Of a stretch of DNA of 64,000 nt, positions 3,973 to 63,297 are shown piece by piece. The DNA is from a virus. The notes under the pieces were generated by a model. It saw only the letters and a program-made list of their open reading frames with translations, had not been told where the DNA came from and did not search any database. The DNA lies in the IMG/VR virus record IMGVR_UViG_3300038386_000109, one strand, 5' to 3'. The translations under genes were made by a program, and so were the position numbers. The first letter of the stretch is position 1; each line of letters begins with the position of its first letter.

Positions 3973-6027
3973 CTACCTATCGATGACGAGCGCTGGCAAT
4001 GCATGATTATTGCCGCTCTTGCGCTCACCGACCCCCGACTGCGCCCCTGGCGGGGCGTGACCTGTTTTCGTTTCCTTCGTACCCTTAGGTAGCGCCGACG
4101 TCGGCCCACCAGTCGCCTCTTTTATCATGTTGTCGTGCGCCCGGGTAACCGCTTTCGTGACCTGCTGCGCAACGGCATGAGGGTCCGACATGCCGTGCAC
4201 GTCGATCGTCAGGTGTTGCTTGGTCGATGAATTTTTAATCGTGTTGTTCCAGGTGTTCTGCACACCCGGGGGTATGTCGGTCCTGAAGCCATGCAGGTCG
4301 AAATAGCGCGAGCCGTCGTGCAGGAACTTCGCCTTCTCCTTATCGATCAGCGGCGCAACGATAGGGGGAGGTGACACTGTCGCCGCTACCGGTCCGCCGA
4401 GGCCTGGACCCATCGGCGTCGCACGCGCCTCGCCGCCGTAAAATTGGCGGTAGGCGCCAGACGAGTACGTGCTCCAATCCCGATAGCCACCCGCCTCGCG
4501 CGCCATCTGCAAAGCAACACGGGCGTTGGTTTTCGGGTCATAGAGGTCGCTGTACGACTTAAGACCGAAGCGCTTCAAGCGTTCCGGCCCCATCCGACCG
4601 AGCATGTTGATCTGCCAGAGACCGAAACTGTAGTCCCGGCCGTACGGATTAAGCGCCGACGGCCGACCGCGAGATTCCGCCATCCCTATCGCCGCGAGCG
4701 TTCGCGCCTCAGCGTCGGAAGCGCCAGCCTGCTTCATCAGCTGGAAGAGCCCGGCGGTATTGAACCGCTCCTTGCTGCCAGCGCCAGGATCAGCGCCGCC
4801 CATCAGCTTGTTCAAGCCGGCGCGCACGCGAGAGAACACGCCCCCGGCGCGGCCCCGTAGAGTGTCGCTGTAGGCTCCGGGGTCTACAGCAGCCCCACCG
4901 CCGCCAACCGCACCAGCGCCGCCCCCAGCGGCTCCTGCGGGGGTTTCTCCGCCGCCTTCCCCTGTAGGGGCGCTGCCAGTGTTGGCTTCGGCCGGCGTCG
5001 CCCCGAAGAGCTTCATGAACGAAGCGAATGCGAGGGCCAGCGCGCCAATCGCGCCGATCGCGGTACCGAGCCGCCGTCCGATCAGCAAGAGCAGCAGCAG
5101 CTCGATGGCACCCTTCCATCCAACCGTGTTGACGGTAGCTTTGCTGACGTTGACCGCGAAATTCTTAAAACCAGTGGCCATCTCCTTCAGCTGCGATAGC
5201 CACTGGTCTCTCGTTTCGATCAGGTGAATGAGACCGTCGGCCAGAGCCATTAACGCCTTGCCGACGTCGACCAGAAAATCCCTGATCTTTACAGAGTTTG
5301 CATCGATCAGCGCCGTGAGCCTCTCGAGCTTCTCGCCAGTCGGACCGGCGAGCCGTTCGGCAACCGAGTAGAGGATGGTGTCGACCGACTGGACGAATTC
5401 GTTTTTCGATTCGGTGAGCTTCGCGCTTTTCTCACCGAAGTTCGGGTCCTTGGGGTCTATCCCGTGCAGACCCTCCCGCTGCTCGAACTTCTTGACCTCC
5501 TCCTCGAAATTTTTGCGGGTGGCCGTGTACACAGCCATCTCGGACACATGGTAGTGCTCCGCCATTATCGAGACGACGGTGCCGTACGGGTACTTCTTCT
5601 CCAGCGCCTTGATGAGCGCGACTAAGTTCTGCGCATCAGTGTTCGTCTCTGGATGCTCGACGCCGTTCTCGCGGAGCACACGCGCGGCGCCGCCCGGCGT
5701 GTTTTCGAGCTGGCGGAGCTGTTGGCTGAAGCTCTCCAGCGCCTGGGTCATTACCTCGGCTTGCGTGCCGACGGCTTCAGCAGCGCCGCCGAGTGCCCTT
5801 ATCTGCCCGACAGTGGAATGTGTGCGCTGCGCCTGCCAGTAGAGATGGTCCAGGCTGCCGACGATGGTCTCGAAGACCTGCGAGCGCGCCGCGGCGCCGG
5901 CAACGAACGCCAGCGAAAGCTCGGTGATGCGCTTGCCCACATCCTCGATGTGGTCGAGCATCTTCCGCTTCGACTGTTCGTCGATCTTCCAGCTGAGGCC
6001 GACAAAGAATTCGGTGATCGGATTCAC
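3973..6027 (-). CDS. Tape measure-like protein 2 with lytic transglycosylase (SLT/lysozyme-like) domain
   Basis: 684 aa, helical N-half; AAIGMAESRGRPSALNPYGRDYSFGLWQINM...DLYDPKTNARVA...WSTY lysozyme-like motif; GTG start overlapping upstream stop. Confidence 0.75.
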   Translation of the reverse strand: MNPITEFFVGLSWKIDEQSKRKMLDHIEDVGKRITELSLAFVAGAAARSQVFETIVGSLDHLYWQAQRTHSTVGQIRALGGAAEAVGTQAEVMTQALESFSQQLRQLENTPGGAARVLRENGVEHPETNTDAQNLVALIKALEKKYPYGTVVSIMAEHYHVSEMAVYTATRKNFEEEVKKFEQREGLHGIDPKDPNFGEKSAKLTESKNEFVQSVDTILYSVAERLAGPTGEKLERLTALIDANSVKIRDFLVDVGKALMALADGLIHLIETRDQWLSQLKEMATGFKNFAVNVSKATVNTVGWKGAIELLLLLLIGRRLGTAIGAIGALALAFASFMKLFGATPAEANTGSAPTGEGGGETPAGAAGGGAGAVGGGGAAVDPGAYSDTLRGRAGGVFSRVRAGLNKLMGGADPGAGSKERFNTAGLFQLMKQAGASDAEARTLAAIGMAESRGRPSALNPYGRDYSFGLWQINMLGRMGPERLKRFGLKSYSDLYDPKTNARVALQMAREAGGYRDWSTYSSGAYRQFYGGEARATPMGPGLGGPVAATVSPPPIVAPLIDKEKAKFLHDGSRYFDLHGFRTDIPPGVQNTWNNTIKNSSTKQHLTIDVHGMSDPHAVAQQVTKAVTRAHDNMIKEATGGPTSALPKGTKETKTGHAPPGAQSGVGERKSGNNHALPALVIDR

Positions 6028-15351: not shown

Positions 15352-16689
15352 TCAGGCGGCGCTGACGCGGATTTTTGCTGCGTTCGGATAGCGTTCGAGG
15401 AAGCTCTTCTTCTGGCCAGCATCGAACGTCTGCCGATGCTGCTCGCGCTCGGCGCGCTGCGCCTCGTCGGCGGCCTTCGGCTGCATTTCGAGGATCGTGC
15501 GGTAAGCGCTCGGATGAATTTTCTCTGCCTCCTTCACACCCTTGATCTTCAGGGCGGCGAGGTAGACGGAGTCGGCATTGACGAACTTCGTGTCCATGTC
15601 GCCGACATACGGACGGCAGACGCGGCGAGCTTCGTCGATCGCCATAGCACGCTCGACAGCGGAGGCCTCGGCCGCGGCTATTGCAGCGTCCATAGCTTCC
15701 TTGGTGACGGTGTCCTTGGCGCCTTCGGAGCGCGCGGCAGCGAGAGCGGCGAGGCGCTTTTTCTTCTCTTCCTCAGTCTCATCGTAGTCGTCGGGGTCCG
15801 GGTCGGCGTCCTTGGCCTTCGCATCGACCGGGAGAACGGCGCTGAGCGCGTCGAGCACGGGAACGATGTCGTCGAGCGATGCGCCGGCATTGAGCTTGCC
15901 GTCGCAGGCGATCTTCAAACCCTCGAAGATATCGGTCTTCTTCGAATCGAAATTGGTCGCGGTCACATCCTTCAGGATCGGGATGAGGTCGACCTTCGAG
16001 TCCTTCGCTACTTTTTGGAAAAGCGAGGCCATGAGCGCGCCCTGAACGAGTGCGGCCTTACGGGAGAGAGCGGTCGGCATTGTGAAACACTCCATGCTGA
16101 TTTTCGGGATACCGTCGGCCACATGAACGTCGGGTCCTGCCCGACCTTCCTCTACGATCGCGACATGGTTTCCGCCGATGTCACGCATGATGCCGTCGTA
16201 AGCGCGGCCCTCGTACGTGCCTGGCGTCATGTCGGCGACGTAGCGGTACCCGCAGGACAATTCCTTCTGCTTGTCGCTCGTGATCGCCTTGATTGCGCGA
16301 CCGGGCCACACATGCAGATTGGCCTTCAGGTAGGGGTGCTCGTAACGAACATCGCTGATCGACCCGATGGTCAGATCATAAGCGTGATCGTTTGCGTGAA
16401 CTGGCTTGTGGTGGAAGAGAAGAGGTTTGCCGTCGAACGTGCTAGCGGCCCGAGAAAGCTCGTCGGGGTGGCGCAGCATCATGTAGGTCTTGGTGGGCTC
16501 CAGCCCGAGCTTCTGCCAGTTCGGGACTTCGCGGCCGTAATATGGGTTGACGGTGGCCTTGGAAATATTGGTGTCGACCACATGCATATGACCGTCATCG
16601 TCAATGCGACGAGCGGATGCGCGGTCGAATATAAGTTCTTGGCTGACTGCCTCCCCCGACGACAGCCGCTGTCGAGCGACTGCTGTCAT
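15352..16689 (-). CDS. Prohead protease/scaffold (DUF2213 family)
   Basis: NISKATVNPYYGRE...ELSCGY...TPGTYEG..YDGIMRDI.GNHVAIVEEGRAG. Confidence 0.9.
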   Translation of the reverse strand: MTAVARQRLSSGEAVSQELIFDRASARRIDDDGHMHVVDTNISKATVNPYYGREVPNWQKLGLEPTKTYMMLRHPDELSRAASTFDGKPLLFHHKPVHANDHAYDLTIGSISDVRYEHPYLKANLHVWPGRAIKAITSDKQKELSCGYRYVADMTPGTYEGRAYDGIMRDIGGNHVAIVEEGRAGPDVHVADGIPKISMECFTMPTALSRKAALVQGALMASLFQKVAKDSKVDLIPILKDVTATNFDSKKTDIFEGLKIACDGKLNAGASLDDIVPVLDALSAVLPVDAKAKDADPDPDDYDETEEEKKKRLAALAAARSEGAKDTVTKEAMDAAIAAAEASAVERAMAIDEARRVCRPYVGDMDTKFVNADSVYLAALKIKGVKEAEKIHPSAYRTILEMQPKAADEAQRAEREQHRQTFDAGQKKSFLERYPNAAKIRVSAA

Positions 16690-16737
16690 AGCGAAAACAA
16701 TTACAGCGGTTCCGTTAGACTTTCAAGCCCCGAGATT

Positions 16738-17469
16738 TTAGTCGATGCCGGGAATAATAGGCTCCGCAAAACATCGGCACCGGTAAATACATCCTGGGTG
16801 CGCACGGGCTCCTGTCCTCGCATCGGCTACAGGTGGACTTGCCCAGGCAAATACCTGACCATCTAGTTCTCGATGGAGGGGCCTTACATGATTATCGTGG
16901 ACGGACCGCCACACATATTGCGTAGAGCCGACATGCTCAGCGCGGACCTGCGTGATCGTCGTCATCGCGCGGCTCGTCTCAGTCTGCGCAATAAGCTCAG
17001 CCCGGCTGCGGACCACCTTGCCCGTCCGCATTATTTCCTCGACGAGAGACGCTGGCCTCTCGCCCGACACGAAACCCTGAAGCGCCAATTTTTGCACACG
17101 CGACGCGGCGTCTTTCGGCATCGACGTTATCAGGTCCACCTGGGACCGGATTAAATCCTGGATCGCCGCACCAGTCGGCGCCGTATCAATTTCCTGATGC
17201 AGGTTCCGGGAAATTTCCTGAGAAATATTCCACCAGCTTTTTCTATTTCGAGCGGCCACCTCAGTGGTCATGCGGGTCGCAACCGACGCCGCCCATGGCC
17301 CAAGAATTTCGGCGTACCGGTACAGGGCATCCTGAATTTTCTGGTAGTCGAGGACAGGGTCGAAGCCTTGAATTAGGTCGGCTATGTGCCGGGCAACCTT
17401 GCGCAGCTTTGCTGCATATTGCCGCTCGGCAGTGCGAGCCCTTACCCATTCAGCCCTAGGCGACGGCAC
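16738..17469 (-). CDS. Head morphogenesis protein (Mu gpF / SPP1 gp7-like)
   Basis: RAELIAQTET...YVWRSVHDNHVRPLHRELDG...HPGCIYRCRCFAEP. Confidence 0.9.
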   Translation of the reverse strand: MPSPRAEWVRARTAERQYAAKLRKVARHIADLIQGFDPVLDYQKIQDALYRYAEILGPWAASVATRMTTEVAARNRKSWWNISQEISRNLHQEIDTAPTGAAIQDLIRSQVDLITSMPKDAASRVQKLALQGFVSGERPASLVEEIMRTGKVVRSRAELIAQTETSRAMTTITQVRAEHVGSTQYVWRSVHDNHVRPLHRELDGQVFAWASPPVADARTGARAHPGCIYRCRCFAEPIIPGID

Positions 17470-25772: not shown

Positions 25773-26273
25773 CTAACGTCGAGCAATTACCTCGGCGCGC
25801 GCAGTGTGGTCGGTCTTGTGCCGCTCATAAGCCTGCGCTTCCTCGCGCATCCCTGGGCGAAATTCGCGATTCTCTTCCGCGATCTGCTCCCGAGCGCGTC
25901 GGTTTGGATCGAATGCGACCTGCGCCTGAGGCGGGGTGAAGACGCGCCGCGAATTGCGGGTGTCGACGATGTCCATGCCGCCATACAAACGGTGGCCGAT
26001 CTTTTCAGGATCGTAACTGGACAACTGCTCCTCGAGCGCCTCGTCCTGCATTTCCTTGGCGCGATCATTGTGCGCCTCGATATCGGCGAGCTGCTCTTCC
26101 TCAGACCGTGGGTCTTCCTCGTCGGAATATTCCAGCTCGCCCTTGCTGCCGCCCTTGGCGGACTGGGCTCGCTCACGGTTTGCTTTTTCGCGCTCAGCTT
26201 GATCGCGCTGAGCCTGTTCGCGCTGAGCCGCTTCGCGGCGGCGGGCTTCTTCCTGATTGTTGGCTTCGGCCAT
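25773..26273 (-). CDS. Charged coiled-coil hypothetical protein
   Basis: Start at MAEANNQEE; E/R/Q/A-rich. Confidence 0.55.
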   Translation of the reverse strand: MAEANNQEEARRREAAQREQAQRDQAEREKANRERAQSAKGGSKGELEYSDEEDPRSEEEQLADIEAHNDRAKEMQDEALEEQLSSYDPEKIGHRLYGGMDIVDTRNSRRVFTPPQAQVAFDPNRRAREQIAEENREFRPGMREEAQAYERHKTDHTARAEVIARR

Positions 26274-26349
26274 GGGTTCACTCCTAGTCAAAGTTTCCCC
26301 CGGGCGTTCCGCTCAAGTGTAGAGCAAAAGCCCTCCACGTCAAAGCGGG

Positions 26350-26571
26350 TCAATGCGGCAGACTTAAAATGATGATGTGTCTGCCGATGTCTTTCAGCTG
26401 AATTTTGTAAACGACATTCTTACCGACGTCAGTCGCTGCCGGAAAATACCCGGCTACTTGGTACTGGCCGATATTCGTATAAAAATCTGGACCCAAATCG
26501 GCGGCGAAGTCAGGAGGATAGTTCGGCACCCACCCTAGCTTCTGCGCTAATTTATTGAGCACTGATCGCAT
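26350..26571 (-). CDS. Hypothetical protein with PPDF..D.GPDFY motif
   Basis: Motif shared with the C-terminus of 21642-24569. Confidence 0.45.
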   Translation of the reverse strand: MRSVLNKLAQKLGWVPNYPPDFAADLGPDFYTNIGQYQVAGYFPAATDVGKNVVYKIQLKDIGRHIIILSLPH

Positions 26572-26766
26572 TTATTTCGACGCTTCTTCTCTATCATAGT
26601 CATCAAGCCACTTCTTAAGGTCGGCGTCCGATACCGAGTCCTTGTTCGACTTCCCAGCCTTACGCAAGGCAGCGGCGATCGCTTGTTCCCGTGGATGGCC
26701 AGCCTCGATCATTTCACGGATGTTCGCCGAAATCACGGCCTGACTGGAACCGGATTTTAATGGCAT
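26572..26766 (-). CDS. Small conserved phage protein
   Basis: [34 protein letters not shown], a widely seen phage head-region peptide. Confidence 0.7.
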
Positions 26767-26792
26767 GGTCAGCCTCTCGTTTTTAAGGAGTG

Positions 26793-26817
26793 CCCGGCGG
26801 GTGACACGCCCGCCGGG
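26793..26817. other. GC-rich hairpin (possible terminator or RNA processing site)
   Basis: CCCGGCGGG-TGACACG-CCCGCCGGG inverted repeat in an intergenic gap. Confidence 0.4.
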
Positions 26818-26846
26818 TGTTCACCCACCCCCTGCCACGGCCAAAC

Positions 26847-27026
26847 TCAGGAACCGGGCAAGCCGTAAATTCTTTCGCGCTCAGCCTTCTGTCTGGCCTC
26901 ACGCCGTTTTCGCGCCTCTTCCTTAAACTCGTCGTTCTGTTGCGAGATATAATTCGAGAGGCGATAGCCGGTCTCCTCGCTAGTAGACCGTCGGCGGCGA
27001 TCCTCAAGGCGCTTGGCGAAGCTCAT
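26847..27026 (-). CDS. Hypothetical 59-aa protein (below ORF-track cutoff)
   Basis: Hand translation MSFAKRLEDRRRRSTSEETGYRLSNYISQQNDEFKEEARKRREARQKAERERIYGLPGS; ATGA overlap with upstream gene. Confidence 0.5.
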   Translation of the reverse strand: MSFAKRLEDRRRRSTSEETGYRLSNYISQQNDEFKEEARKRREARQKAERERIYGLPGS

Positions 27027-27232
27027 CGCCCGTGATGCCTTCCACCACCGCTCAGATGTTCCGTCTTCTCGCCCGGCTTGGCAACTATCTGATAGCCGGA
27101 GGCATCGAGGTCTTCCTGCAGCCGCTTGGATATTGCCGGCAGGTACGGCCGCACCTCACCTTCGAAAAAACTCGACTGCTCGCGGACCATTTGATCGATG
27201 GATGATTGAATAATGTCGTCGACAGTTCGCAT
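27023..27232 (-). CDS. Hypothetical protein
   Basis: 69 aa, starts just after the pentamer mini-array. Confidence 0.5.
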   Translation of the reverse strand: MRTVDDIIQSSIDQMVREQSSFFEGEVRPYLPAISKRLQEDLDASGYQIVAKPGEKTEHLSGGGRHHGR

Positions 27233-27237
27233 CGGAT

Positions 27238-27308
27238 TATCCTCGCCTCGCCTTGCCTGCGCCTTGCGCAGCCGAGCCCGACCCAGCCATGCAGTGGACA
27301 GCCATACC
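27238..27308 (-). repeat. Orphan GGY-NN pentamer mini-array (putative guide ncRNA)
   Basis: Minus strand reads GGTAT GGCTG TCCAC TGCAT GGCTG GGTCG GGCTC GGCTG CGCAA GGCGC(A) GGCAA GGCGA GGCGA GGATA: 14 units, one atypical, one 1-nt insertion. Confidence 0.65.
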
Positions 27309-27604
27309 TTGTCGTACGCAGATTACTGCGGCTTCAGCCATCGCGCCAGCATCATCGTGATATGCCGATCCTGCTGGGCGCGCCAAGGGGCTGGATGCTC
27401 GCGGTCTTGATGGAATTGCAGGGTCAGCATTGCGATCCACGAGGTCGAGGACTTTAGTCTTGCATCCCAGCTGGCCCTGCCGCGCATCGATTCGCTCTCC
27501 CTAGACGGAAAATCCTTCTACCGCGCCAACTGTATCGTGGAAAGTCCCTCTATAGCCGGACCTGCGACCCTCAAAATAAATACGAATATTCCCCTGGAAT
27601 AAAA

Positions 27605-27633
27605 TTGACGTTTCGTCACACAACTCCTATTTT
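27605..27633 (+). promoter_or_regulatory. Sigma70-type promoter with overlapping palindromic operator
   Basis: TTGACG-17 nt-TATTTT; TGACG-TTT-CGTCA palindrome at 27606-27618. Confidence 0.65.
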
Positions 27634-27672
27634 AATGGAGCCGGGATGAACCGGTTAGACCTTGGGAAAGAA

Positions 27673-27885
27673 ATGAGCACTCAGACACAAATGGACGCCT
27701 TCACAGCGGCAATGATCGCGGACGGCGAATTCGAGATGGTCGGCGTCGACCCCGAAGACGAGGAGACGATCCTCGCCGGTTGGCAGTACCTCGTCGATAC
27801 CGGCATGGCGTGGACCCTTCAGGGCCGGATCGGCCGACAGGCCCGCCGCATGATCGAGGCAGGTCTGCTCCGAGAGGCGGCGTAG
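27673..27885 (+). CDS. Hypothetical early protein
   Basis: Start MSTQTQMDAF after GACCTTGGGA leader. Confidence 0.6.
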   Translation: MSTQTQMDAFTAAMIADGEFEMVGVDPEDEETILAGWQYLVDTGMAWTLQGRIGRQARRMIEAGLLREAA

Positions 27886-27888
27886 GCC

Positions 27889-28368
27889 ATGACCCTGCTA
27901 GAGAATGTCGAACACGGAAATCGAACGCCTCGGCAGGCAATGCGAGACGGCAGAGGCCTTCCAGCTCGCTTGGAAAAACCAGGATTGGTGGACCGACGCA
28001 AGCATGAACAGGAGCGTATGATGGGCACCTTCACCATCCACTTCCGCCGCGCCGGATCGAATCACACAGAGCAGGCTCGGGTCAGCTTCGCCAAGACCCG
28101 CGCTGAGGCCGAGGACTTCGTGCGCTCGACCTTCGGCCAGCTCGAAGTTCTCCCGCCGAGAACTGGCCGCCACGCACGGCGGCGGCCGCCGGTCAACGCC
28201 GAGCCACCGGCTACGTACTCGATCGAGGTGCCGTTCCCCGGTGACCACGCACCCTACAAGATAGTCCGCACCGATGGCGCGGGCAGGAAACGCATCGTCG
28301 ATTCGGCGATGACCAGAGAGGTTGCGCGCGAGTACCTGAAGAGCGCGCGAGAACGGAGGCTGAAGTGA
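27889..28368 (+). CDS. Hypothetical protein
   Basis: 159 aa, in operon. Confidence 0.5.
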   Translation: MTLLENVEHGNRTPRQAMRDGRGLPARLEKPGLVDRRKHEQERMMGTFTIHFRRAGSNHTEQARVSFAKTRAEAEDFVRSTFGQLEVLPPRTGRHARRRPPVNAEPPATYSIEVPFPGDHAPYKIVRTDGAGRKRIVDSAMTREVAREYLKSARERRLK

Positions 28369-28664
28369 ATACCCTGGAAAAATTGCAGGAGCACCTACTC
28401 AACCGCACGCACCTAAACAACTCGCCGCCCGTGATTTGCAAGAGCGGCCTCACGATGTCGGTACAGGCCAGCGAGACGCACTATTGCTCGCCCAAGAACA
28501 ATGTCGGCCCCTACTCGCGCGTCGAAGTCGGCTTCCCCAGCCGCCGCGTGATGGCGCTAATGCCTTACCGGGATTGGGCACCGGGCCGCCCTGCCAGAAT
28601 ATTCTCGTACGTACCCGTAACGGTCGTCGCGACCGTGATCGAGAAAAATGGAGGCTTCGCATGA
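28365..28664 (+). CDS. Conserved phage hypothetical protein
   Basis: CKSGLTMSVQASETHYCSP...VEVGFPS motif. Confidence 0.65.
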   Translation: MNTLEKLQEHLLNRTHLNNSPPVICKSGLTMSVQASETHYCSPKNNVGPYSRVEVGFPSRRVMALMPYRDWAPGRPARIFSYVPVTVVATVIEKNGGFA

Positions 28665-28948
28665 CACGCCGACGAGAACAGAAAATATCGCCAATTCAGC
28701 TCGACCTGATCCGTCAAATCGCTCAGCGCGCAGTGCGCCTGTACCAAGACGTCCTCGGCGAGGATATCCCGCAGTGGGAATTCGAAGCCGAGATATCCAT
28801 GGCGCATGCGAGCAATCCGCTGCGCCTCGGCGAACTACTTGAAGCCAACGACGGTAATTTCGCCCACGACATTGGCGGTATCCGCAACAACCTCAACCGC
28901 CTCACGGGAGAGCTGCGGAATTGCTTCTCCCCACGCTATTCCGCCTGA
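28661..28948 (+). CDS. Hypothetical protein (DUF6874-like)
   Basis: LRLGELLEANDGNFAHDIGGIRNNLNRLTGELRNCFSPRY; start moved to ATG 28661. Confidence 0.6.
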   Translation: MTRRREQKISPIQLDLIRQIAQRAVRLYQDVLGEDIPQWEFEAEISMAHASNPLRLGELLEANDGNFAHDIGGIRNNLNRLTGELRNCFSPRYSA

Positions 28949-29026
28949 CGTTTCCACTAGGGGCGCGTGCGCGCGCCTCTCAGGAAGCGCCATCGCTTCA
29001 AACTGACCTTGGGAAAGGAAATTAAA

Positions 29027-29400
29027 ATGGGCACTCGTTCGGACATCATCGCAAAACGGCGCGACGGAAAATGGGCGCGCATCTACTGCCACTGGGATGG
29101 TTACCTAGAGCACAACGGCCGCATTTTCTCTTCAGGAGCTACAAGACACAGAAAAAGGTCGAGGACCTGATAGCGCTCGGCGACATCTCCACTCTGGGGG
29201 CAAATCCAGGGCGGCAGCATCCATTCGAGGCGCCGCGGCAGTTTGCTAGCGGCGGGGGCTTCAAAACTGAGAGCCGAGTACAAAGCTTACAAGAATATGT
29301 GCACCGCCTACGGCCGCGATCGCGGCGACGCTGGTGTTGTTGGAAGCAGCGCTGAAGGGCGAGGCTAAGGTGACGCCTAGCGTCAAGGCCTTCGGCGAGA
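29027..29400 (+). pseudogene. Frameshifted conserved phage gene (MGTRS..IYCHWDGY family)
   Basis: MGTRSDII...IYCHWDGYLEHNG continues in another frame as YKTQKKVEDLIALGDISTL and again as MCTAYGRDRG. Confidence 0.55.
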
Positions 29401-29517
29401 ACATGGTGATTGGCAAGCACAAGCCGCTCAGACCAGACGCTGGAGACGCCTCACAGCATTCTTGGACGTGGTACCATCCGGCCGGAACAGCCGCCTAAAA
29501 AATTAGGGAGAACAACC

Positions 29518-29976
29518 GTGCAAACTATCGAATATCGGTTCGTCGACAAATCGGCCTGGGGACACGGTCCGTGGCAGTTAGAGCCAGATAAACGGCAATG
29601 GCTCGATCCGCAGACCGGATTACCGTGCATCGTGCGGCGCAGCCCCGCGTTGGGCTTCCTATGCGGATATGTGGGCGTACCGCGCTCGCATCCAGCCTAC
29701 AGGAAGGACTGCGATGCCGTTGATGTATCAGTGCATGGAGGCTTGACATTCAGTGATACGTGCAGCGGCGGCGATCACGACATCTGCCACAAGGTCAGCC
29801 CGGGCGAAGACGACGACGTTTGGTGGCTCGGTTTTGATTGCGGCCACTTTTCGGATGCTACCCCGGGTATGATGAGCCTCGCATACCGAAACATCTACCG
29901 CGACTTCCCCTATGTTGTGAACGAATGCGAGGGGCTGGCGCGGCAGCTCAAAGCTATGACGGAGACTACAAAATGA
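29518..29976 (+). CDS. Conserved phage hypothetical protein
   Basis: W.HGPW..EPDK..W...LCGYVGVP..HP...VHGGLTF...WWLGFDCGH; GTG start with GGAG RBS. Confidence 0.7.
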   Translation: MQTIEYRFVDKSAWGHGPWQLEPDKRQWLDPQTGLPCIVRRSPALGFLCGYVGVPRSHPAYRKDCDAVDVSVHGGLTFSDTCSGGDHDICHKVSPGEDDDVWWLGFDCGHFSDATPGMMSLAYRNIYRDFPYVVNECEGLARQLKAMTETTK

Positions 29977-30353
29977 AACGCCTAGCCTTAATCCTCACCG
30001 CGCTCGCGATGTCCACCAGCGCGCACGCCGGAGACGTGTACGAGATGACCTGCACCAAGTCCGAGATCACCCCTCGGACGATGCTGCCGACGTACGTGGC
30101 CATGTTCAGGGCCAGCGCCTTCACGGGCGCGCTGGTCATCGACACCGGCGTGAAGCGCATCACCTACTCGGTCGACCGGGTGGTCGAGCGGTACACGTAT
30201 GTCGACGTGTACGGCCGAACCCCATTCGGCACAACGTACGCCGCACGGTTCCCAACTAGCTCAACCGCCAAAGCCACAGCGCAGTTCGCGAGTTTCAACG
30301 GCAACAAGCAGATCACCGACCACTGCGAAGCGGACTTCGAGTCGAGTGACTAA
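29973..30353 (+). CDS. Secreted/periplasmic hypothetical protein
   Basis: Signal-peptide-like MKRLALILTALAMSTSAHA. Confidence 0.6.
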   Translation: MKRLALILTALAMSTSAHAGDVYEMTCTKSEITPRTMLPTYVAMFRASAFTGALVIDTGVKRITYSVDRVVERYTYVDVYGRTPFGTTYAARFPTSSTAKATAQFASFNGNKQITDHCEADFESSD

Positions 30354-30658
30354 TGAAGATCGTCGACCCCAAAGACATAGACTTCCTGCCACCGGAGACT
30401 TTGGCCACTTACCCGCTAATTGGCCAGCTTCCAGACGGTCGGTATTGCGGCATCCATCGCCTGCTGTACCACTGGACCATGCATGTGGACCTGGATGAAT
30501 TCGGGTATGCTGACAAATATTGCTTCGCCACTCAGGCCCTCGCGGTCGCCGCACTGATTAACTGGAATGGCGAGGGTGATCCTGACGGATGGCACAGACA
30601 CCTGAAAACAGGGCGGCGACGCAATCTCGAAACAGGCGAGGAGTGGATACAGTGGTAA
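30353..30658 (+). CDS. Hypothetical protein
   Basis: 101 aa; last gene of the + cassette. Confidence 0.6.
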   Translation: MKIVDPKDIDFLPPETLATYPLIGQLPDGRYCGIHRLLYHWTMHVDLDEFGYADKYCFATQALAVAALINWNGEGDPDGWHRHLKTGRRRNLETGEEWIQW

Positions 30659-31494
30659 CTACAGCCGCTTAACGATCCACATAACCACCGCGATCACGAC
30701 CACGATCGCGGTGAGCGCAAGGACATTTCCCGGCCAGCCCGGTGTAGCCATCTCAAAATGCCCTCGTCCATTTTCCCCCGATTGGTCGGCAGGTCCATCG
30801 GGATTTGTCGGGATCACCCGAAACCCCAAAAAAACCAGCCCAGAATTAAACCGACCGACGCAATAACGAGGGTGCCGCAAAGGAATATTGTAGCACCCTT
30901 ACTCATTCTTCGAAGCGGTAGGTCCACGTTCCCCCCGAATCTTTCACGATTTGGTCGCGCCTGACATACCCCTGTCCCACAGCAACGGCCGCATAAATCC
31001 CCCAGCCCTTCACAGTGACACGCCAGAGACCAAGACTAGTCTTCTCGCCCTTGTAGAGATGCACCAGCTCGCCGGTGCGGATGTAGCGGTGCAGCGCAAG
31101 GTCGACGAGGCCTCGGATCATTCTGACTTCCGCCGCTTCATCGCGTACTCGTAGGAGCTGACAGCGATGGCCGCGTACCTCTTTGTCAGCTGCTTCGCGG
31201 TCTCTATCGCGACATGGTGAGGCACCTGCGAATCGGAAGCGCGAGCTAGAATCTTGCCCCTACGATCAACCTCGCAGACATAGAAGAGGCGCGGTTCGCG
31301 GCTCACTTCGACTTCTTTTCCTGCTGCCGGCCGGTGACCGGCTTCTGGATGGCATTCTTAGGCATGCTGCCCAACACCTCGCTGACGATGGCGTCGCGCT
31401 GCATCTTCTGGCTTTCGTTCAGCTCGCGGTGGATCGGATCACCATCAAAATGCTCAGGTCCCAGCTCGCCGAGTTTGTGTTTATAGGGTTTCAT
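30659..31494 (-). CDS. Four small hypothetical ORFs (30659-30880, 30903-31121, 31118-31306, 31303-31494)
   Basis: Mostly overlapping start/stop codons; downstream of the portal gene and the second mini-array. Confidence 0.45.
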
Positions 31495-31546
31495 CCGTGC
31501 CTTGCCTCGCCGTGCCCAGCCGCGCCACGCACCGCAGAGCCGTGCC
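31492..31546 (-). repeat. Orphan GGY-NN pentamer mini-array (putative guide ncRNA)
   Basis: Minus strand GGCAC GGCTC TGCGG TGCGT GGCGC GGCTG GGCAC GGCGA GGCAA GGCAC GGATG: 11 perfectly phased units. Confidence 0.75.
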
Positions 31547-31551
31547 GCTGG

Positions 31552-34500
31552 CTAAAAATGGCGATCATTTCGGCCCTCCGCAACCTTTTTTGGCGAGCCT
31601 CGCTCGCCGTTATTGTCATACAGTGTCCAGCGCTTCAGTCGCGGGATGATGTCATCGAAATTCTTCTCGTTACCGTACGAGCCAAGGATGTATTCTGGCG
31701 GCACAAACCGGCCCGTCCCCTTGTCTGATACCCCGCCTTTGGCAAACCGGCCCATAGCGCGGTCCGCAGCGATTTCCGGCGTGCTGTGCATGTAAATCCC
31801 GTGTACGTCGTGCGTATCCTGAAACTGATCGATGCGCCGCAGCGCGCTGGTGCCCGACTTCATGGTCTGGTCGAAGGCGACGTTCAGACCCTTCTGCTTG
31901 GCGATCTGCGCAGCCATGTCGGCGATGTGCGAGCTTTCCTCGTGCACTAGGCCAGCATTCCAGCCCTCGTACTCCGGGAGCTGCTGCTTGAACGCATCCG
32001 AATCGACCACGATCGTATTCTTGCGCGACACGGGGCCGTCGGCGCCGGTGATGAACGACTTGCCGGAGCCGCCGCGGCCGCCGAGGACGGTCATCGTCGG
32101 CCGCTGCCCTGGCGCTGGCGTCGCGCCCTGCACCGCCTCAGGCGTGAACAGCTTCCGCAGGATTTCCTTGTGCAGTTGGGCGCGCTCCGGCGTGTACGTG
32201 CCGTCGTCGAGGGTGTGGCCACCGTCGTTGACGTGCGCGTTGGTCGGCACAGCCTGCTTCATCATCTCGCGGATTTTCGCGATTTGATCCGTCGTCCCGT
32301 ACTTTCCATTTATCCGCTTGGCGGCGTCGTCGATCTGCCCCGGGTGAGGCGCGCCGCCGTTCCTCGCTAGGAGGTCTTGGGCGGGTCCTTTTTCCCAGAC
32401 GCGGGAACTGACGTCTGGCGTCCACCCGTACTTTTGGGCGAACTGGTCTTCGACGGCTGCGATTTTGGGGCCGAGGTTGGCGAGTAGCGTGTCGGCGCTT
32501 CGTTCCACATCGGGTCCAGCCGATCGGATGGCTTGTAAATAATCCTCGGCATGGGGGGACTTGCTCCAATCGTTCGCCAGATAATCGCCCACGTAGTGAG
32601 CGCGCTGGGCCTCAATTTGCTCTGGAAGGCTGTCGGATTCAAGACCTTCGATCGCCGAATGCACAGCCGCGCCGAACTGATCGTTGGGCATCGATCCGGT
32701 ATTCAAGACGCGCCAGCCCTGCTGGGTCGGGACGAGCGCGTACTCCAGTCCGCTAACGGCGCCGAGCGCCTGATCGATGGCTGCCGCCTCGGCCTCTGAT
32801 GGGCTGCGACCCATCCTGAAGTCGAGCATATTGCTGTCCTTCGGATCGATGTCGACGAACCGCGTCGAGGCGTGCGGATCGAGGTGCTCGCTAATCAGCT
32901 TGGGCTGTTTGTAACCCCTGCCGATATCGGAGAGCAGGCCATTCTGTTCGGCGTACTGGCGCGCCGCCGTACGACTGAGGACCTGACCCTTGTCGTTCTT
33001 GAAAACGTAGTTCGCATCGTTCTGCGCGCCGCTCGCCAGAAAAGCCTTCTGCTCCTCCGGTCCGAGGGCCGCCAGTGCGTCTTTGTGGGTGACCCCGTGT
33101 CCGGTGTCCGTCGGGAACACAACGCCCTTGGCGGTCTTCAGACCGGGAATGAGATAGGCATGGGACGGCGGGGGTTCAGGCCGGTGCCATGCGGCAGCGT
33201 CTTGACGCAGCAGGATGCCCCGAATCGCCTCGCTGGCGTTGATCTTCGCCTTATCATCGTCGCCGAGCCGACCAAGATTAACCTGTGTCTGGGCGCCTGG
33301 ATTGACGCGACCTTGGAACACGCCGGCCGATGAGAACGTCGGGCCCGTGCGCAAGCCGAGGGTCTGCGCGATGACGTCGTGACCCTTCTCGTCGCTGAGG
33401 ACTTTCTCAATCGCCTGCTGGTACTCGCGGCGCTGCTCGAGCGGAGCGTCGTGGAACTGCGGCATGTTCCGCGTGGTCTTGCCGGGCGCACTCTCCCACG
33501 AGAGCTGGGCGGGCTGCCGCTCACGCGGGTCGGTCGGCTGATACTCGACGTGCGGGTGGTGCAGCGCCGGAGCCTGCGCGACCTTGCGGGCTACTCCTGG
33601 TCCGCTGGTGAATCGCCCGTGTTGCTCGCGGGGGTGCTGCTGCTCGTTCCACTGCTGGAAGAGGTCGAGGGCGAGCGGAACTGTTCCGGCAATTCCTCCT
33701 CGTCCTCCGCCGTCGGCTGATAATCCGGGTCGCCCCAGTTCACCGCGATGTAATTCGTGCGCGTCAGCGGTATGCCGTACGTCACCATGAACTCCACCAC
33801 TGGGTCGGTGCCATGAAGGTGGGCTAATTCCTCGGCTGAGAATGCGGCGCTGGGCTTCGTCTCGGGTGATTTTTCCACTGTCGGCGTCATCCCAGTGCCC
33901 CTTTATTTCCTTGCGAAGGTCGTCGCCTTTGTCCTCGGCTTTGAATAGACCGCGCTGCGCTTCCCAGGTGACCGACTGCATCTCACGTGGCAGGACGCCA
34001 CGCTCCTGAGCTGCGCGCCGGTATCCCTCTGCATATAATCCGTAGAGGCCTTTCGAGCCAGTGGCAGCATCCTTCGCGCCGGTGAGGCCGAGACCATCCT
34101 TAACCTCGGGATCGGCGCCACTCCACGGCATCAGCGCAGCCGCGCCAATAGCATGGGTGTCGATAGTCACGTCCCCACGCTTCGACTGCGGCGCGATGAT
34201 GTTGTTGTAGAAATTCCTAACCTTGTGATTTCCGCCAAGGTTCTTGGAAATATTCTCGGGCGACGGATCGTCCACGATCGACACCGCCTTGGCAATCTCG
34301 CGGAACGACTTCCACGCGGCGCGCGAATCGCGGCCGTCCTTGTTCTTGACCGAGCCGAGGACAGCACCCTCAGGCGACATTTCCGGGAACGAGCGGGTGT
34401 TTTCGGTCTCGTCCCAGAACCTGATCCAGTGTGCGCGCTCAAGCGGCTTCTGAATATCGGCGAGGGTTTTGCCCTCGAAACCCTGCATCATCTTGCGGAC

Positions 34501-37500
34501 ACCGGCGGCAACCTCGGGCGTTTTTTCCTCGAGCTTCTGCGCGTAGGCCTCGGCCCACTCCTTCATCCGCTGCGTGGTCTTCTTGTCGCTATGATTTTTG
34601 ATCGTGTCGATGACGCGGTGCGCCAGGCTGATGTTCTGGAACCAGTCATTCTGCGGCGACAACGCGGCTATTACGCCGGCAGCGACACGCGGCTCAATGC
34701 CGAAGTGCTGCGCCCAATCCTCGGCCATCTTGTGCGCGCCGTCGTACCAGAGCTTCGATCGACCCTTGATCTCGTCGGGGACTGAATCCCACAACGCCAG
34801 CACGTTCGATTTGACGTGGTTGACGAAATATTCTGAGGCCTCGTCGGCTTTCATATTTTTCGTCGCGCCGAGCCCGGGGATTTTCTTGATCAGCTCGGCG
34901 TTCTTTTCGAATGCGGCTTTCGAGGCCTTACTGGACTCGAGACCAACCTGAAAATCGGCACTCCTATGCGGGTCGACCGCGGTCTGACCTTTCTTCGGTT
35001 TCGCGGTCGGCACCCGGGTGGAGATGCGCTCGTCGTCAGGATTGGCCTCAGGCTGCGATTCCGGCCCGCTGGGCGGCTTTTTGCCTTCGGCCGGGTCCCA
35101 ATGGCCCGACGTGAATTGACCGCCCTGGTGAGACCCCTTCGGGGCCCGTTGCTCGCTCGGGCTTAGGCGGTCTTCAGCGATCACCTTGTCGTCCTGCTTC
35201 AGGACCTTGATGTCCTTCGGATCGAAGACGACGTAATTCAGCTCGCCGCGCAGCTGCGGGTCGCGGTAGACGTAGCCGGCTAGACCCCGACGCCTCAGCT
35301 CTTCGTCGGTCCACTTCGCGTCCTGCGCCTTGGTCCACGGCACGAAGTCGGTCCGCGGGCGCATCACACGCACCGTGTACAGATGGCCAGTGATATGCGT
35401 CTGCGCAGCGTTCAGCCGATGGATAGGCTTGCCGCTGAGCTGCAGCCGGTCGGTCAGCTCGTCGAGGTACCGGCGCGCTACGACCGGCGAGGTGGCGAGG
35501 TAGATGCCGGTCCCGTAGTGGGCGCGCGCGGTCCCGGTCCCGATGTGGCTGCTATCGAAATGATCGAAGTCGAAAGGGCTGCCGTGATACGCGACAAAGC
35601 CCTCCGCGGGGTCGGCATCCCACGCACCGCAGTGTGCCTCGCGTTCCTCGAGTATCTCGCGGACTGTCTCGATGTCATTCTCGCGCAGTGCGCGCCGCAG
35701 ACGCTCGCTCTCAATTTTGGTGAGCTTGCCTAGATCGAACGGAGGTGCTTCGTCCCGCGCTGAAGCGAGGCGGAGGTTCGGGGGCGCACGGACTGGAGAG
35801 CTGGCCGTGCCACCCCCGCCCCCACCGCCAGCGGCAGGACCGGACGTGGACGACGGGTCTTCGCCATCCGGCCCAGGCGGTTCCGGTACTTCCTGATTAG
35901 CCTTCGCGTTCGCGACGTCTTCCTCGGTGATCGTCTTGAACAGGCCAGCCTCGACCAATTCGCCCAAAGCTTGCGATGCGTCAATAAGGCCATCGGTGTA
36001 CGCAGTGAGGATCGGCGTCGCCATCTTCGTCGCGTTCTCAGACAGCTGCTCGTCCGTCATCTCAGGCTCGTCGTCGAGGTCGAGCCCGGCGTACGGCATC
36101 CCCTTGTCGCTCGCGACTTTCTTGCGCACCTCGAGCGGCGACAGTACGTTCGCGTCGATGTAGGTCTTATCAGTGCTGGCATCGGCCTGCCGCACCTGCG
36201 CATCCTCCATCGCGGACTGCGTCCACAGCGGCTCGAAGTCGAAGCCAATGTCGGGATCGATATCGCCGAACAGACTGAGCTGGGTAAAGTTAATGATGGT
36301 GGTCAGTTGCGGACGAAAGAAAACCTCCTGCACGGCATGAATCCAATCGTAGAACACCCTGATCTCGCCCTCGGACGAGGCGTTCAAGCCGTGCGGCGAC
36401 AGGCCGAAAAACTTCACCAGCGGGATGCCGGTGACGGCACTCATGTGCTCCTGCGACTGCGCTTGCAGCTCGTCGAGCCCACTCAGCGGCGTAGTGACAT
36501 TGAAAAACTCTTCATCGACATCGAGGACGAACGTGCCTTGGTTCTGCTTGAAGTTGGTGAACAGCTGCAGCCGGCGGATCATATCGTCGGCGCTAATGCC
36601 GCTGTTCAGCGCCTCGGCCATCTTGGTCTTGAAGCCAGTGGTGCTAAAGCTCTGAACGAGCCGGCCGACCGACTCACGAATGCGGTCCCAGTTGTTGACG
36701 TAGGTCTCGGCTAGCTGGGTCAGCGGAATACCGCCGAACGAGTAGCTCGGCTTCAGCAAGTCGGAGACGGGTCGACTGATGAACGTCAGTAGACGAGACG
36801 CATGAATGCGCTTATTCTGTACATACCATTGCGTCGGTACGTAGTAGTCAGGTGCCAGGGGGTCGGTGGCGTTGTACAAGGCGGGCGAACACCAGACAGG
36901 CTCGACGATACGAAGCGCATTGAACCGACCGCGGCCCACCTTTGCCCGGCTGATGTCATCGCTGCCTGATCCGATAGGCGTCGCCAGCTCAACAGAATCG
37001 TTAGTGTCGGCCCCCGTATCAATGTAGATATGGCCGCGCCCGAAGTAGCCGTCATGTTCCGCTACCTTTCGGAAGAGATCGCGCACACCCAGGCGAAGCA
37101 TCTCCGCCTCGATTTTCTTGACCTTATCGGTTTTATCGTCCTCGCTCGCGACCGTTATTTTAATCCACTTCCGCGTCATCTCCGTCGCGATGATCTCGAC
37201 CATGCGGCGGTACTCAGCCTTCTGCGACAAGTTCGCGAGCGCCGGGAAGCCGATGAAGCGCATGGCGTGCAGCAGCGTGCTGCCCATGGCAGCCTCGATC
37301 GAATGCCACGCCCACTCACTGATATCGTTGCCGAACAAGGACAGGCTCTCGTCCTGCACCAAGCCGCCCTTGTGACCGACGACTGGCGGGTGAAGAGCCT
37401 CGATCTTGAATGGGTTGACAGCCTTGCTTGGGTCGATCGACGAGGACGCGAGCATCGACTGGAATGCCCCGGCGTCGACCTTCCTGGTGCGCCTAGGTGT

Positions 37501-37527
37501 CCGCTCGTTCAGATCGGTGACGGTCAT
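31552..37527 (-). CDS. Polyvalent portal protein: DUF1073 portal + ART-like + glycosylase-like + zeta-toxin domains
   Basis: N-terminal ~550 aa DUF1073-like (EMTRKWI, IHASRLL, SGIPLVKFFGLSPHGLNASSEGE); YHGSPFDFDHF..G.GIYL..YVVFDP; VIAALSPQNDW..KVRNFY..VTIDTHA; VLGGRGGSGKS..VDSDAFK..VHEES. Confidence 0.8.
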   Translation of the reverse strand: MTVTDLNERTPRRTRKVDAGAFQSMLASSSIDPSKAVNPFKIEALHPPVVGHKGGLVQDESLSLFGNDISEWAWHSIEAAMGSTLLHAMRFIGFPALANLSQKAEYRRMVEIIATEMTRKWIKITVASEDDKTDKVKKIEAEMLRLGVRDLFRKVAEHDGYFGRGHIYIDTGADTNDSVELATPIGSGSDDISRAKVGRGRFNALRIVEPVWCSPALYNATDPLAPDYYVPTQWYVQNKRIHASRLLTFISRPVSDLLKPSYSFGGIPLTQLAETYVNNWDRIRESVGRLVQSFSTTGFKTKMAEALNSGISADDMIRRLQLFTNFKQNQGTFVLDVDEEFFNVTTPLSGLDELQAQSQEHMSAVTGIPLVKFFGLSPHGLNASSEGEIRVFYDWIHAVQEVFFRPQLTTIINFTQLSLFGDIDPDIGFDFEPLWTQSAMEDAQVRQADASTDKTYIDANVLSPLEVRKKVASDKGMPYAGLDLDDEPEMTDEQLSENATKMATPILTAYTDGLIDASQALGELVEAGLFKTITEEDVANAKANQEVPEPPGPDGEDPSSTSGPAAGGGGGGGTASSPVRAPPNLRLASARDEAPPFDLGKLTKIESERLRRALRENDIETVREILEEREAHCGAWDADPAEGFVAYHGSPFDFDHFDSSHIGTGTARAHYGTGIYLATSPVVARRYLDELTDRLQLSGKPIHRLNAAQTHITGHLYTVRVMRPRTDFVPWTKAQDAKWTDEELRRRGLAGYVYRDPQLRGELNYVVFDPKDIKVLKQDDKVIAEDRLSPSEQRAPKGSHQGGQFTSGHWDPAEGKKPPSGPESQPEANPDDERISTRVPTAKPKKGQTAVDPHRSADFQVGLESSKASKAAFEKNAELIKKIPGLGATKNMKADEASEYFVNHVKSNVLALWDSVPDEIKGRSKLWYDGAHKMAEDWAQHFGIEPRVAAGVIAALSPQNDWFQNISLAHRVIDTIKNHSDKKTTQRMKEWAEAYAQKLEEKTPEVAAGVRKMMQGFEGKTLADIQKPLERAHWIRFWDETENTRSFPEMSPEGAVLGSVKNKDGRDSRAAWKSFREIAKAVSIVDDPSPENISKNLGGNHKVRNFYNNIIAPQSKRGDVTIDTHAIGAAALMPWSGADPEVKDGLGLTGAKDAATGSKGLYGLYAEGYRRAAQERGVLPREMQSVTWEAQRGLFKAEDKGDDLRKEIKGHWDDADSGKITRDEAQRRILSRGISPPSWHRPSGGVHGDVRHTADAHELHRGELGRPGLSADGGGRGGIAGTVPLALDLFQQWNEQQHPREQHGRFTSGPGVARKVAQAPALHHPHVEYQPTDPRERQPAQLSWESAPGKTTRNMPQFHDAPLEQRREYQQAIEKVLSDEKGHDVIAQTLGLRTGPTFSSAGVFQGRVNPGAQTQVNLGRLGDDDKAKINASEAIRGILLRQDAAAWHRPEPPPSHAYLIPGLKTAKGVVFPTDTGHGVTHKDALAALGPEEQKAFLASGAQNDANYVFKNDKGQVLSRTAARQYAEQNGLLSDIGRGYKQPKLISEHLDPHASTRFVDIDPKDSNMLDFRMGRSPSEAEAAAIDQALGAVSGLEYALVPTQQGWRVLNTGSMPNDQFGAAVHSAIEGLESDSLPEQIEAQRAHYVGDYLANDWSKSPHAEDYLQAIRSAGPDVERSADTLLANLGPKIAAVEDQFAQKYGWTPDVSSRVWEKGPAQDLLARNGGAPHPGQIDDAAKRINGKYGTTDQIAKIREMMKQAVPTNAHVNDGGHTLDDGTYTPERAQLHKEILRKLFTPEAVQGATPAPGQRPTMTVLGGRGGSGKSFITGADGPVSRKNTIVVDSDAFKQQLPEYEGWNAGLVHEESSHIADMAAQIAKQKGLNVAFDQTMKSGTSALRRIDQFQDTHDVHGIYMHSTPEIAADRAMGRFAKGGVSDKGTGRFVPPEYILGSYGNEKNFDDIIPRLKRWTLYDNNGERGSPKKVAEGRNDRHF
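33591..33890 (-). CDS. Putative nested same-strand alternate-frame small protein
   Basis: GTDPVVEFMVTYGIPLTRTNYIAVNWGDPDYQPTAEDEEELPEQFR reads like a natural protein while the host frame here is low-complexity filler. Confidence 0.45.
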   Translation of the reverse strand: MTPTVEKSPETKPSAAFSAEELAHLHGTDPVVEFMVTYGIPLTRTNYIAVNWGDPDYQPTAEDEEELPEQFRSPSTSSSSGTSSSTPASNTGDSPADQE

Positions 37528-37920
37528 CGCAAACCTCGATGACGCGGACCCCCGATCGTCGCGCCTGTTTCACCATGTTAGCCGTTCCCTTGCCACCAGG
37601 GAAGGCGATGACCGCAATCTCTCCACCCTCGCCGCGCAAGTGGCGCAACAATTCCGTATTGCGCATCGGCCCGGCGCGATCGCCGAACTTCGACCAACTA
37701 GCGATCATCGTCAGATTATGGGACACGCCAGCGCTCCGCCCATGTATAGGCATGGTAGTCGACACCGCCAACGGTCTGCTTGAGCCAGGGATCGAACTTC
37801 CGCTGACCACCCTCGATCAGCAATTCTATGGAGCCGACCATTGTTATTTATTTTATTCAGCTCGTGATGCACCCAGTCACCATCGCGCTCGTGCCGGCTG
37901 CCGCAGACGATGACTTTCAC
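37493..37920 (-). pseudogene. SLOG/DUF2493 (YspA-like) gene split over three frames
   Basis: VKVIVCGSRH / IELLIEGG..GVD...WAERW / WSKFGDRAGPMRNTELL..VIAFPGGKGTANMV. Confidence 0.65.
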
Positions 37921-52022: not shown

Positions 52023-52391
52023 ATGGCCTCCAGCAAATTCCTCATGGCCGAGCGTCGCGACTACGGCCAACCTGAACCAGCCCGCGACCCAAATCCAGTC
52101 CACCACGCCCTAGCGCTGATCGAGCGCATGGACCTCTCAGACCTCGAGACAGTCGCCTCCGCCCTGCTCGACCGCATGATCGACCTACACGACCAAGCCG
52201 AAGAGGAAAAAACAAAACCCAGCTACGACAACCTGCTGCTGATGCTCGACGATGTCTCGGCAGTCGCGCAGAATCTATACCTCGTCGCACCACCCGCAGC
52301 AAAAGAGAAAGCCCGCGAGGACAAAATCCGCGGCGCCCGCACAGTGTGCGATCAGCTTCTGCGAACAAAACAGCCGAAACGGCGTCGCTAA
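52023..52391 (+). CDS. Hypothetical early protein
   Basis: Start MASSKF after GACCTTGGGA leader. Confidence 0.55.
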   Translation: MASSKFLMAERRDYGQPEPARDPNPVHHALALIERMDLSDLETVASALLDRMIDLHDQAEEEKTKPSYDNLLLMLDDVSAVAQNLYLVAPPAAKEKAREDKIRGARTVCDQLLRTKQPKRRR

Positions 52392-52458
52392 GGCGCTGTC
52401 ACCTGGGGCTGGCCGTCCCGGGTCTGAAGATGGCAGGCCAAACTTGAAAGGTAGCAAA

Positions 52459-63041: not shown

Positions 63042-63297
63042 GGCATGGCTAAGATAGGCATAGCAAGGCCATGCTTGGCGCTGCGGGGCGAAGCTTGGCG
63101 TGGTTAAGCAAGGAGCGGCGCGGTTCGGCTCGGCTCAGCCCGGCGGGGCCATGCAGGGCGGGGCAAGGTCCGGGTAAGGCGGTGCGAGGCGGTGCGAGGC
63201 GAGGAGCGGTGAGGTGATGCGGAGCAAAAGCAAGGCAGGCACGGCAGGGCCAGGCCGGGCAAGGCGATGCGGGGCAAGGTATAGCGTGGCGAGGTGG
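63042..63297 (+). repeat. Long GGY-NN pentamer array (~51 units), putative guide-RNA locus
   Basis: Phased (G/A/T)G(C/T/A)-NN units from GGCAT GGCTA to GGCGA GGTGG with two 1-nt insertions (63172, 63228) and one 4-nt unit (63234-63237); no credible ORF. Confidence 0.85.

Follow-up and report, generated by a model that had tools for sequence, protein, structure and literature searches.

The window, the whole stretch of 64,000 nucleotides analysed here (IMG/VR record IMGVR_UViG_3300038386_000109), comes from a metagenome contig of 77,985 bp that belongs to an uncultivated phage. A tract of five-base repeat units was located on its minus strand, between two small open reading frames (ORFs) of unknown function and 36 kb from vipr, with no vipr or vap genes adjoining it. 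VIPR, a CRISPR-related silencing system with Escherichia phage SUSP1 as the type example, was described in 2026 (bioRxiv 10.64898/2026.04.26.720920 and 10.64898/2026.04.26.720927). Since these preprints describe VIPR and the window encodes a Vipr protein, VIPR was taken as the known kind to which the tract belongs. In the available parts of 10.64898/2026.04.26.720920, the guide RNAs (vrRNAs) are described as runs of 9-16 GGY-NN units, often degenerate internally, that have a constant 3' end, and their targets read NN-x-NN, the skipped base usually being at the codon wobble position. The features of the locus are the following.

27023-27232, minus strand: downstream 69-aa ORF, called as a gene on the source contig
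27238-27308, minus strand: repeat tract of 71 bases, 14 five-base units, in a 90-nt spacer between two same-strand ORFs
27238-27258, minus strand: slip base A (27258) and 3' handle GGCAA GGCGA GGCGA GGATA, the last unit being GGA and not GGY
27240-27244, minus strand: GAGGA ribosome-binding site of the 69-aa ORF, within the last two handle units, 7 nt before the ATG
27259-27308, minus strand: variable guide part, 10 five-base units, seven with GGY and the rest with TCC, TGC and CGC
27323-27487, minus strand: upstream 54-aa gene, stop codon 14 nt before the array; holds the near-target
27351-27379, plus strand: near-target of the guide, 14/20 informative bases (0.70), 7/10 whole units, 43 nt from the array
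27488-27645, no strand: divergent regulatory region between the 54-aa gene and a DUF7417 gene; contains the palindrome TGACGAAACGTCA
31497-31546, minus strand: second dispersed mini-array, between the stop codon of portal and the following ATG; same grammar and handle
63042-63297, plus strand: main vrRNA array upstream of vipr
63362-63967, plus strand: vipr gene (RAMP protein); phmmer match in PDB, 36pp 'SUSP1 Vipr protein', E=4.2e-9
from about 63976, past the window end: second array after vipr (contig record L083, 10611-10943)

Read on the minus strand from 27308 to 27238, units 1-7 are GGTAT GGCTG tccac tgcat GGCTG GGTCG GGCTC and units 8-14 are GGCTG cgcaa GGCGC [a] GGCAA GGCGA GGCGA ggata. 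The string of NN pairs listed in the original prediction was correct on re-reading of this strand (AT TG AC AT TG CG TC TG AA GC for the variable part). The tract was also rightly placed just before the ATG of ORF 27023-27232, with ATCCG between the last unit and the ATG at 27232. Its description as 14 phased GGY units held in part: there are 14 units on the minus strand, but only 10 of them are GGY-NN, three being TCC, TGC or CGC variants and the final one GGA, and the extra base after unit 10 (27258) shifts the register, which breaks the single phase. The wording overstates the regularity of the tract.

When the window was simulated 200 times with a second-order Markov model, 7 runs (3.5%) reached the strict single-phase count of the tract (7 GGY in 14 slots). 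The slip-tolerant score of the tract was 6.25, and that of the mini-array at 31.5 kb was 6.5; a maximum of 3.25 was found in the rest of the window, outside the other arrays. It is hardly credible that the tract is a G+C-rich, purine-rich leader in which a Shine-Dalgarno-like run produced the pattern by chance. The last units (GGCGAGGCGAGGA) are indeed Shine-Dalgarno-like, and a run of four perfect GGY-NN units in a row, as present in the tract, was by itself reached in 30% of the simulations. However, the slip-tolerant score was reached in none of 150 third-order Markov simulations (maximum 5.25) and nowhere in 442 kb of unrelated phage loci (maximum 4.25), so that the predicted periodicity does stand above background, and the grammar and the handle are common to the tract and the Vipr-flanking arrays.

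The RNA fold of the tract was no more stable than that of shuffled sequences (z = -0.02), and no Rfam family was found at the tract. A 67-aa ORF reading through the array was rejected as a gene, its composition (GC3 0.49) not being gene-like. The minus strand showed no sigma-70-like promoter, and neither a promoter-like or terminator-like site nor a tail hairpin was found for the tract. The claim that it is separately transcribed was thus not borne out: since it fills the 90-nt spacer between same-strand ORFs and such sites were not found, transcription together with the operon is likelier, and this is the simplest assumption.

Vipr protein, arrays and shared 3' handle

The RAMP-like protein named in the original prediction (63362-63967) proved to be a homologue of Vipr by the PDB match. 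The residues aligned with R138, D177, W178 and R179 of SUSP1 Vipr are R, D, F and R; the G-loop, which is guanine-binding in SUSP1 Vipr, is thus kept as D-F-R together with the thumb Arg.

The four arrays of this phage all occupy spaces between same-strand genes and start 5-14 nt past a stop codon, and three of them end 0-7 nt before a start codon, namely those of ssb, of the 69-aa ORF and of the ORF after portal. The array downstream of vipr (L083 10611-10943) ends in …GGCAA GGCAA GGATT, 7 nt before the ATG of the ssb-like ORF, which spans only 42 codons in this assembly and has GC-rich inverted repeats behind it. The mini-array at 31497-31546 starts 5 nt behind the portal fusion stop codon, and the ATG of the ORF that follows is supplied by its last unit. 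The search for a near-target adjacent to this mini-array was negative, the best local match of its guide being 13/20.

Variant units of the TGC, AGC and CGC types are common in the main arrays beside vipr as well, so that the tract follows the grammar of the main arrays, as had been proposed for the array at 63 kb. The ends of the arrays are also alike. The handle signature GC[AG]A-GGC[AG]N-GGA occurred 13 times in the phage's own genome and in the related records G001-G003, L086 and L089, in all 13 cases at array 3' ends; seven further occurrences in G008-G010 were likewise all at arrays (7/7), and a single one was counted in the 442 kb of control DNA. All four arrays of this phage, and those of eight relatives, end in the handle, as do internal array units that have no gene behind them. 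By short-word BLAST the variable part was unique in the genome and only the handle resembled other arrays. The confinement of the signature to array 3' ends leads to a division of the tract into a variable part of 10 units and the constant handle.

A type II hammerhead ribozyme was detected in an intergenic spacer at 52372-52442 on the plus strand (Rfam RF02276, 44.7 bits, above the gathering score), with no GGY-NN units flanking it. Hammerhead-interspersed arrays are mentioned in the VIPR preprint.

The guide and the adjacent 54-aa gene

No homologue in databases and no family match in Pfam or PHROGs was obtained for the 69-aa ORF, and the 54-aa gene had no family match in Pfam or PHROGs either. 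The 54-aa frame has a GC3 of 0.73 and one homologue, P0004, which is 60% identical (E=3e-8) and encoded on L179, a 643-bp contig from another metagenome. Over 40 aligned codons the two differ by 13 synonymous and 16 nonsynonymous codon changes. Taken together, the codon composition, the homologue and this pattern of differences indicate that the 54-aa ORF is a real gene. A 693-aa repeat protein (P0003) that appeared as a HMMER homologue was set aside, as it looks like a translated simple repeat.

The palindrome TGACGAAACGTCA (27606-27618; TGACG-N-AACGTCA) is operator-like and is conserved upstream of the homologue (L179, about 275-290), and bases near it (…TTCCAGGGG…) are common to the upstream regions of the gene and its only homologue. 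This conservation, in a divergent promoter region, suggests that the 54-aa protein belongs to a shared regulatory module. No array was found behind the homologue in L179. Neither the 69-aa ORF nor the DUF7417 gene has a significantly similar counterpart among the ORFs flanking the homologue; L179 is therefore not called a syntenic sister locus, and insertion of the array is not claimed. No further alleles of the 54-aa gene were recovered by word-based protein search or, in viral contigs, with a degenerate DNA pattern for the peptide HPAPWR..QDRH.

Targets were sought by the rule that NN pairs are joined by one skipped base (1-nt skip); an identity of 0.8 is the target-calling cut-off given in the available part of 10.64898/2026.10.15.759431. 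The site at 27351-27379 was the best unit-level match of the guide and the only seven-unit site in the genome. Every base skipped at this site is a third codon position of the 54-aa gene (codons 37-46, AQQDRHITMM). Within the neighbourhood, a seven-unit match was obtained with none of 1000 unit permutations, with one of 1000 random guides and with one of 2000 pseudo-guides drawn from random DNA, by a unit-level statistic that was chosen after the data had been seen. The adjacent base-level match (14/20) is not significant alone, about 8% of pseudo-guides reaching 14/20. The class-level adjacency result given below was weighted above this single-guide figure.

The homologous wobble-aligned site of P0004 on L179 matched the guide at 16/20 (0.80), with 15/16 over the first eight units and a poor fit of the last two; it is the best candidate for a natural target of the guide. 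By codon of the site, the comparison is as follows.

Codon 1: guide GCN (A); own copy A, match; homologue E, half match
Codon 2: guide TTN (F/L); own copy Q, no match; homologue R, no match
Codons 3-6: guide Q, D, R, H; own copy, match; homologue, match
Codon 7: guide ATN (I/M); own copy I, match; homologue L, half match
Codon 8: guide GTN (V); own copy T, no match; homologue V, match
Codon 9: guide CAN (H/Q); own copy M, no match; homologue Q, match
Codon 10: guide AT. (I/M); own copy M, match; homologue M, match

The guide has the residues of the homologue at two codons, is matched better by the own copy at two and agrees with neither at one. For this reason it looks like a third allele of the 54-aa gene family.

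Elsewhere, base-level matches of the 10-unit guide in the own genome were at the null level, and in the other Vipr-clade genomes no site was both at 0.8 or above and wobble aligned. A 16/20 match in G001 was rejected as a target, its skipped base being at codon position 2. The exact 20-base gapped pattern gave 0 matches in viral contigs, one in genome contigs (a Clostridia MAG, skipped base at codon position 1) and four in metagenomes, which represent three independent sites, two of them in homologous pdxJ genes. The gapped NN-x-NN search advised in the original prediction yielded the near-match in the adjacent gene, but the exact matches elsewhere were about as many as expected by chance. The pdxJ sites, both from one metagenome (L135 140-168 and L136 418-446), match 20/20 guide bases, are wobble-aligned and encode the peptide AFHERQIVHI; given the overall chance number of exact matches, they were treated as a coincidence and not as a guide target.

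Several of these observations bear on whether the tract might be a decaying relic, that is, a former guide or the copy of an array end left by recombination and no longer loaded or used. The tract is short, three of its units have a degenerate scaffold, its register slips once and it has no tail hairpin or terminator, all of which would suit such an origin. On the other hand, its GGY share (7/10 variable units) is close to the share in the main arrays, where TGC, AGC and CGC units are also numerous; the handle is intact; and the guide is still codon-phased with the adjacent gene family. Contigs covering 26000-32000 in three DNA runs from separate metagenome studies were also identical to the window, an identity that may reflect recent common ancestry only. 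A relic is considered very improbable. No match was listed among the RNA runs in which the sequence was searched, and no near relative of the tract region was found in the phage collection.

Dispersed arrays in related phages

Vipr proteins with 55-73% identity were found on 25 IMG/VR contigs, and eight of these records were examined in full. Dispersed arrays far from vipr were present in three of the eight: two in G001, six in G008, and three plus a weak one in G010. At the ends of many dispersed arrays in the relatives there is a G+C-rich hairpin, in some cases with a T run; the 27238-27308 tract has no such hairpin. G008 (IMGVR_UViG_3300021475_000019) is a complete 52-kb VIPR+ phage with arrays at 3798, 9624, 13895, 20007, 21630 (+) and 40831 (-). 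Its single-guide arrays look like independent small genes, since several of them have terminator-like hairpins behind.

In G001 the same unit run (GGCGA tgcgc GGCGA cgcta GGCTC GGCAA GGCGA) is present in two arrays (2497-2566 and 4340-4372), which shows that guides can be duplicated within a genome. The same record encodes a 580-aa protein (15484-16725) that is 41% identical to part of the portal fusion protein of the window (31555-37569), and a dispersed array (17005-17069) lies just past its end on the opposite strand.

For the 11 dispersed guides of G001, G008 and G010, the best 1-nt-skip match in the whole genome lay 60-250 nt from the array in seven cases (five unique tops and two ties), with a chance expectation of about 1% per guide. 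At all eight adjacent sites, 27351-27379 included, the skipped base is at codon position 3 of the neighbouring gene, taken as the longest covering frame. The identities of the relatives' adjacent sites were 0.60-0.71, below 0.8.

This adjacency could be read as self-regulation: the complex would bind the phage's 54-aa gene at 27351-27379 and, by negative feedback, lower transcription of the operon that carries the guide. In favour of this, no site in the genome matches the guide better by units than the one at 27351-27379, which lies in the same operon upstream of the array, and the relatives show the same adjacency. Nevertheless, the identity at the site (0.70), as in the relatives, is below the cut-off of 10.64898/2026.10.15.759431; disturbed NN pairing abolished silencing in the experiments reported in the accessible part of 10.64898/2026.04.26.720920; and the homologue fits the guide better than the own copy does. 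Self-regulation is accordingly judged improbable.

A translational operator, the second reading of the original prediction, was also considered. Here the tract would mainly be a site for Vipr or another protein on the operon mRNA, and its coating would cover GAGGA and set the translation of the 69-aa ORF, with guide activity secondary or absent. The position of the ribosome-binding site inside the handle, 7 nt before the ATG, is in line with this, as are the ends of three of the four arrays close to start codons and, similarly, the G001 array upstream of vipr, which ends 10 nt before the vipr ATG. However, the same handle closes internal units without a following gene, the dispersed arrays of G008 and G010 end in hairpins or terminators and not at start codons, and an operator leaves both the wobble-aligned near-target and the better match of the homologue unexplained. 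An operator as the main function is therefore unlikely; the operator and guide readings can nonetheless coexist.

The preferred reading is that the tract is probably a dispersed guide-RNA (vrRNA) unit, working or recently working, of the phage's own VIPR system. The suggestion of the original prediction that it serves as a guide in trans for the RAMP-like protein was strengthened, as a candidate role, by the Vipr homologue, by the clade grammar and 3' handle, by the dispersed arrays in VIPR+ relatives, and by the wobble-aligned near-target in the adjacent gene with its better match in the homologue. This reading is qualified by three of the ten variable units lacking GGY, by the negative searches for a promoter, a terminator or a structured tail at the tract and for an adjacent near-target at the mini-array of 31.5 kb, and by the single homologue of the 54-aa gene, whose match of 0.80 is not perfect. 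A narrower proposal, advanced tentatively and with rather less than even confidence, is that the guide silences rival alleles of the neighbour gene, its own allele being protected by three mismatched units.

Under the guide reading, the RNA would be transcribed within the leftward operon. Vipr protomers would then cover the GGY-NN units as far as the GGA unit and stop there, since the pyrimidine pocket of SUSP1 Vipr for the third base (Y3) excludes purines (10.64898/2026.04.26.720927, available in part). The complex would silence the rival alleles that co-infecting relatives have of the 54-aa gene, and the own allele would escape through mismatches in three whole units. As a side hypothesis, loading of Vipr might make translation of the 69-aa ORF less efficient, since its ribosome-binding site is inside the handle.

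It is possible, if doubtful, that the dispersed vrRNAs of this Vipr clade are in general linked cassettes of a guide plus a resistant allele, each beside a mismatched copy of the gene that it silences in close relatives; here the guide would be cut from operon mRNA and the handle would at the same time be the ribosome-binding site of the ORF behind it, so that loading could gate translation of that ORF. If so, the allele bearing the cassette would win mixed infections, like homing-endonuclease genes beside a resistant target. This phage and the relatives examined show VIPR+ phages that scatter single guides through their genomes, each tending to adjoin an imperfect codon-phased copy of its target, and searches restricted to the neighbourhood of vipr undercount guides. 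If the adjacency holds, it would provide a rule for predicting the targets of unknown guides (the neighbouring gene of sister phages), would point to competition between closely related phages at the level of alleles and would give a hint at where new guides come from.

Comparison with known systems

The TRAP-type operators of Bacillus consist of 11 GAG/UAG triplets with 2-3 nt spacers and are bound by a ring protein. They are like the tract in having a conserved triplet that recurs about every 5 nt along an mRNA leader as far as the ribosome-binding site. Unlike there, no TRAP-like protein is present here, the triplet is GGY and the putative binder is a RAMP protein, which builds a guide filament; the resemblance is in principle only.

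The array callers in the available parts of the preprints are based on tandem GGY-NN with at least four units. The tract has at least four GGY-NN units, a length within the 9-16 unit range (10 variable units plus a 4-unit handle), a Vipr protein in the genome and a shared 3' end. As far as the vrRNAs of SUSP1 are described there, they are like the tract in GGY-NN units in the 9-16 range, in degeneracy, in a Vipr of the same genome, in the combination of a variable part with a constant 3' end, and in an NN-x-NN reading of targets, candidate ones in the case of the tract, with the skipped base at wobble. In contrast to the SUSP1 clade, whose 3' tail is about 40 nt long and contains a pseudoknot, the tract has only a short handle (GGCRA GGCRN GGA). 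It also differs from the SUSP1 vrRNAs in lying 36 kb from vipr in an unrelated operon, in ending 5 nt before a start codon and in the relaxed first position of the trinucleotide (TGC, AGC, CGC), as in the main arrays of its clade. Staggered or tail-less vrRNA arrays (legend of fig. S18 in 10.64898/2026.04.26.720920) share with the tract the lack of a structured tail and the presence of register shifts; unlike in those arrays, the single +1 slip of the tract separates the variable units from the handle and not two guides.

The guides in the available parts of the preprints are next to vipr, on satellites or on phages that lost vipr; three traits of the tract were not found in those parts: a location 36 kb from vipr in a genome that is VIPR+, the overlap of a short handle with a ribosome-binding site, and an adjoining mismatched copy of the presumed target. 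The closest counterparts are the solo vrRNAs of satellites and of phages that lost vipr (10.64898/2026.10.15.759431, seen in part). Like the tract, those of F5 satellites and VIPR-null SUSP1-like phages lie away from a vipr operon and are presumed to be loaded in trans, and in both the targets, presumed ones for the tract, are genes of competing elements and the self-match score is lower than the non-self one. The published solos are carried by an element without vipr, which borrows the protein, and in VIPR-null phages they are at the old VIPR locus after its deletion. The genome of the tract, in contrast, has its own vipr, and the guide lies beside a mismatched copy of its presumed target. 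With Vipr encoded on the contig of the tract, the guide would count as a dispersed one in a VIPR+ phage and not as a solo in the sense of that preprint, as far as the term is set out in its available part.
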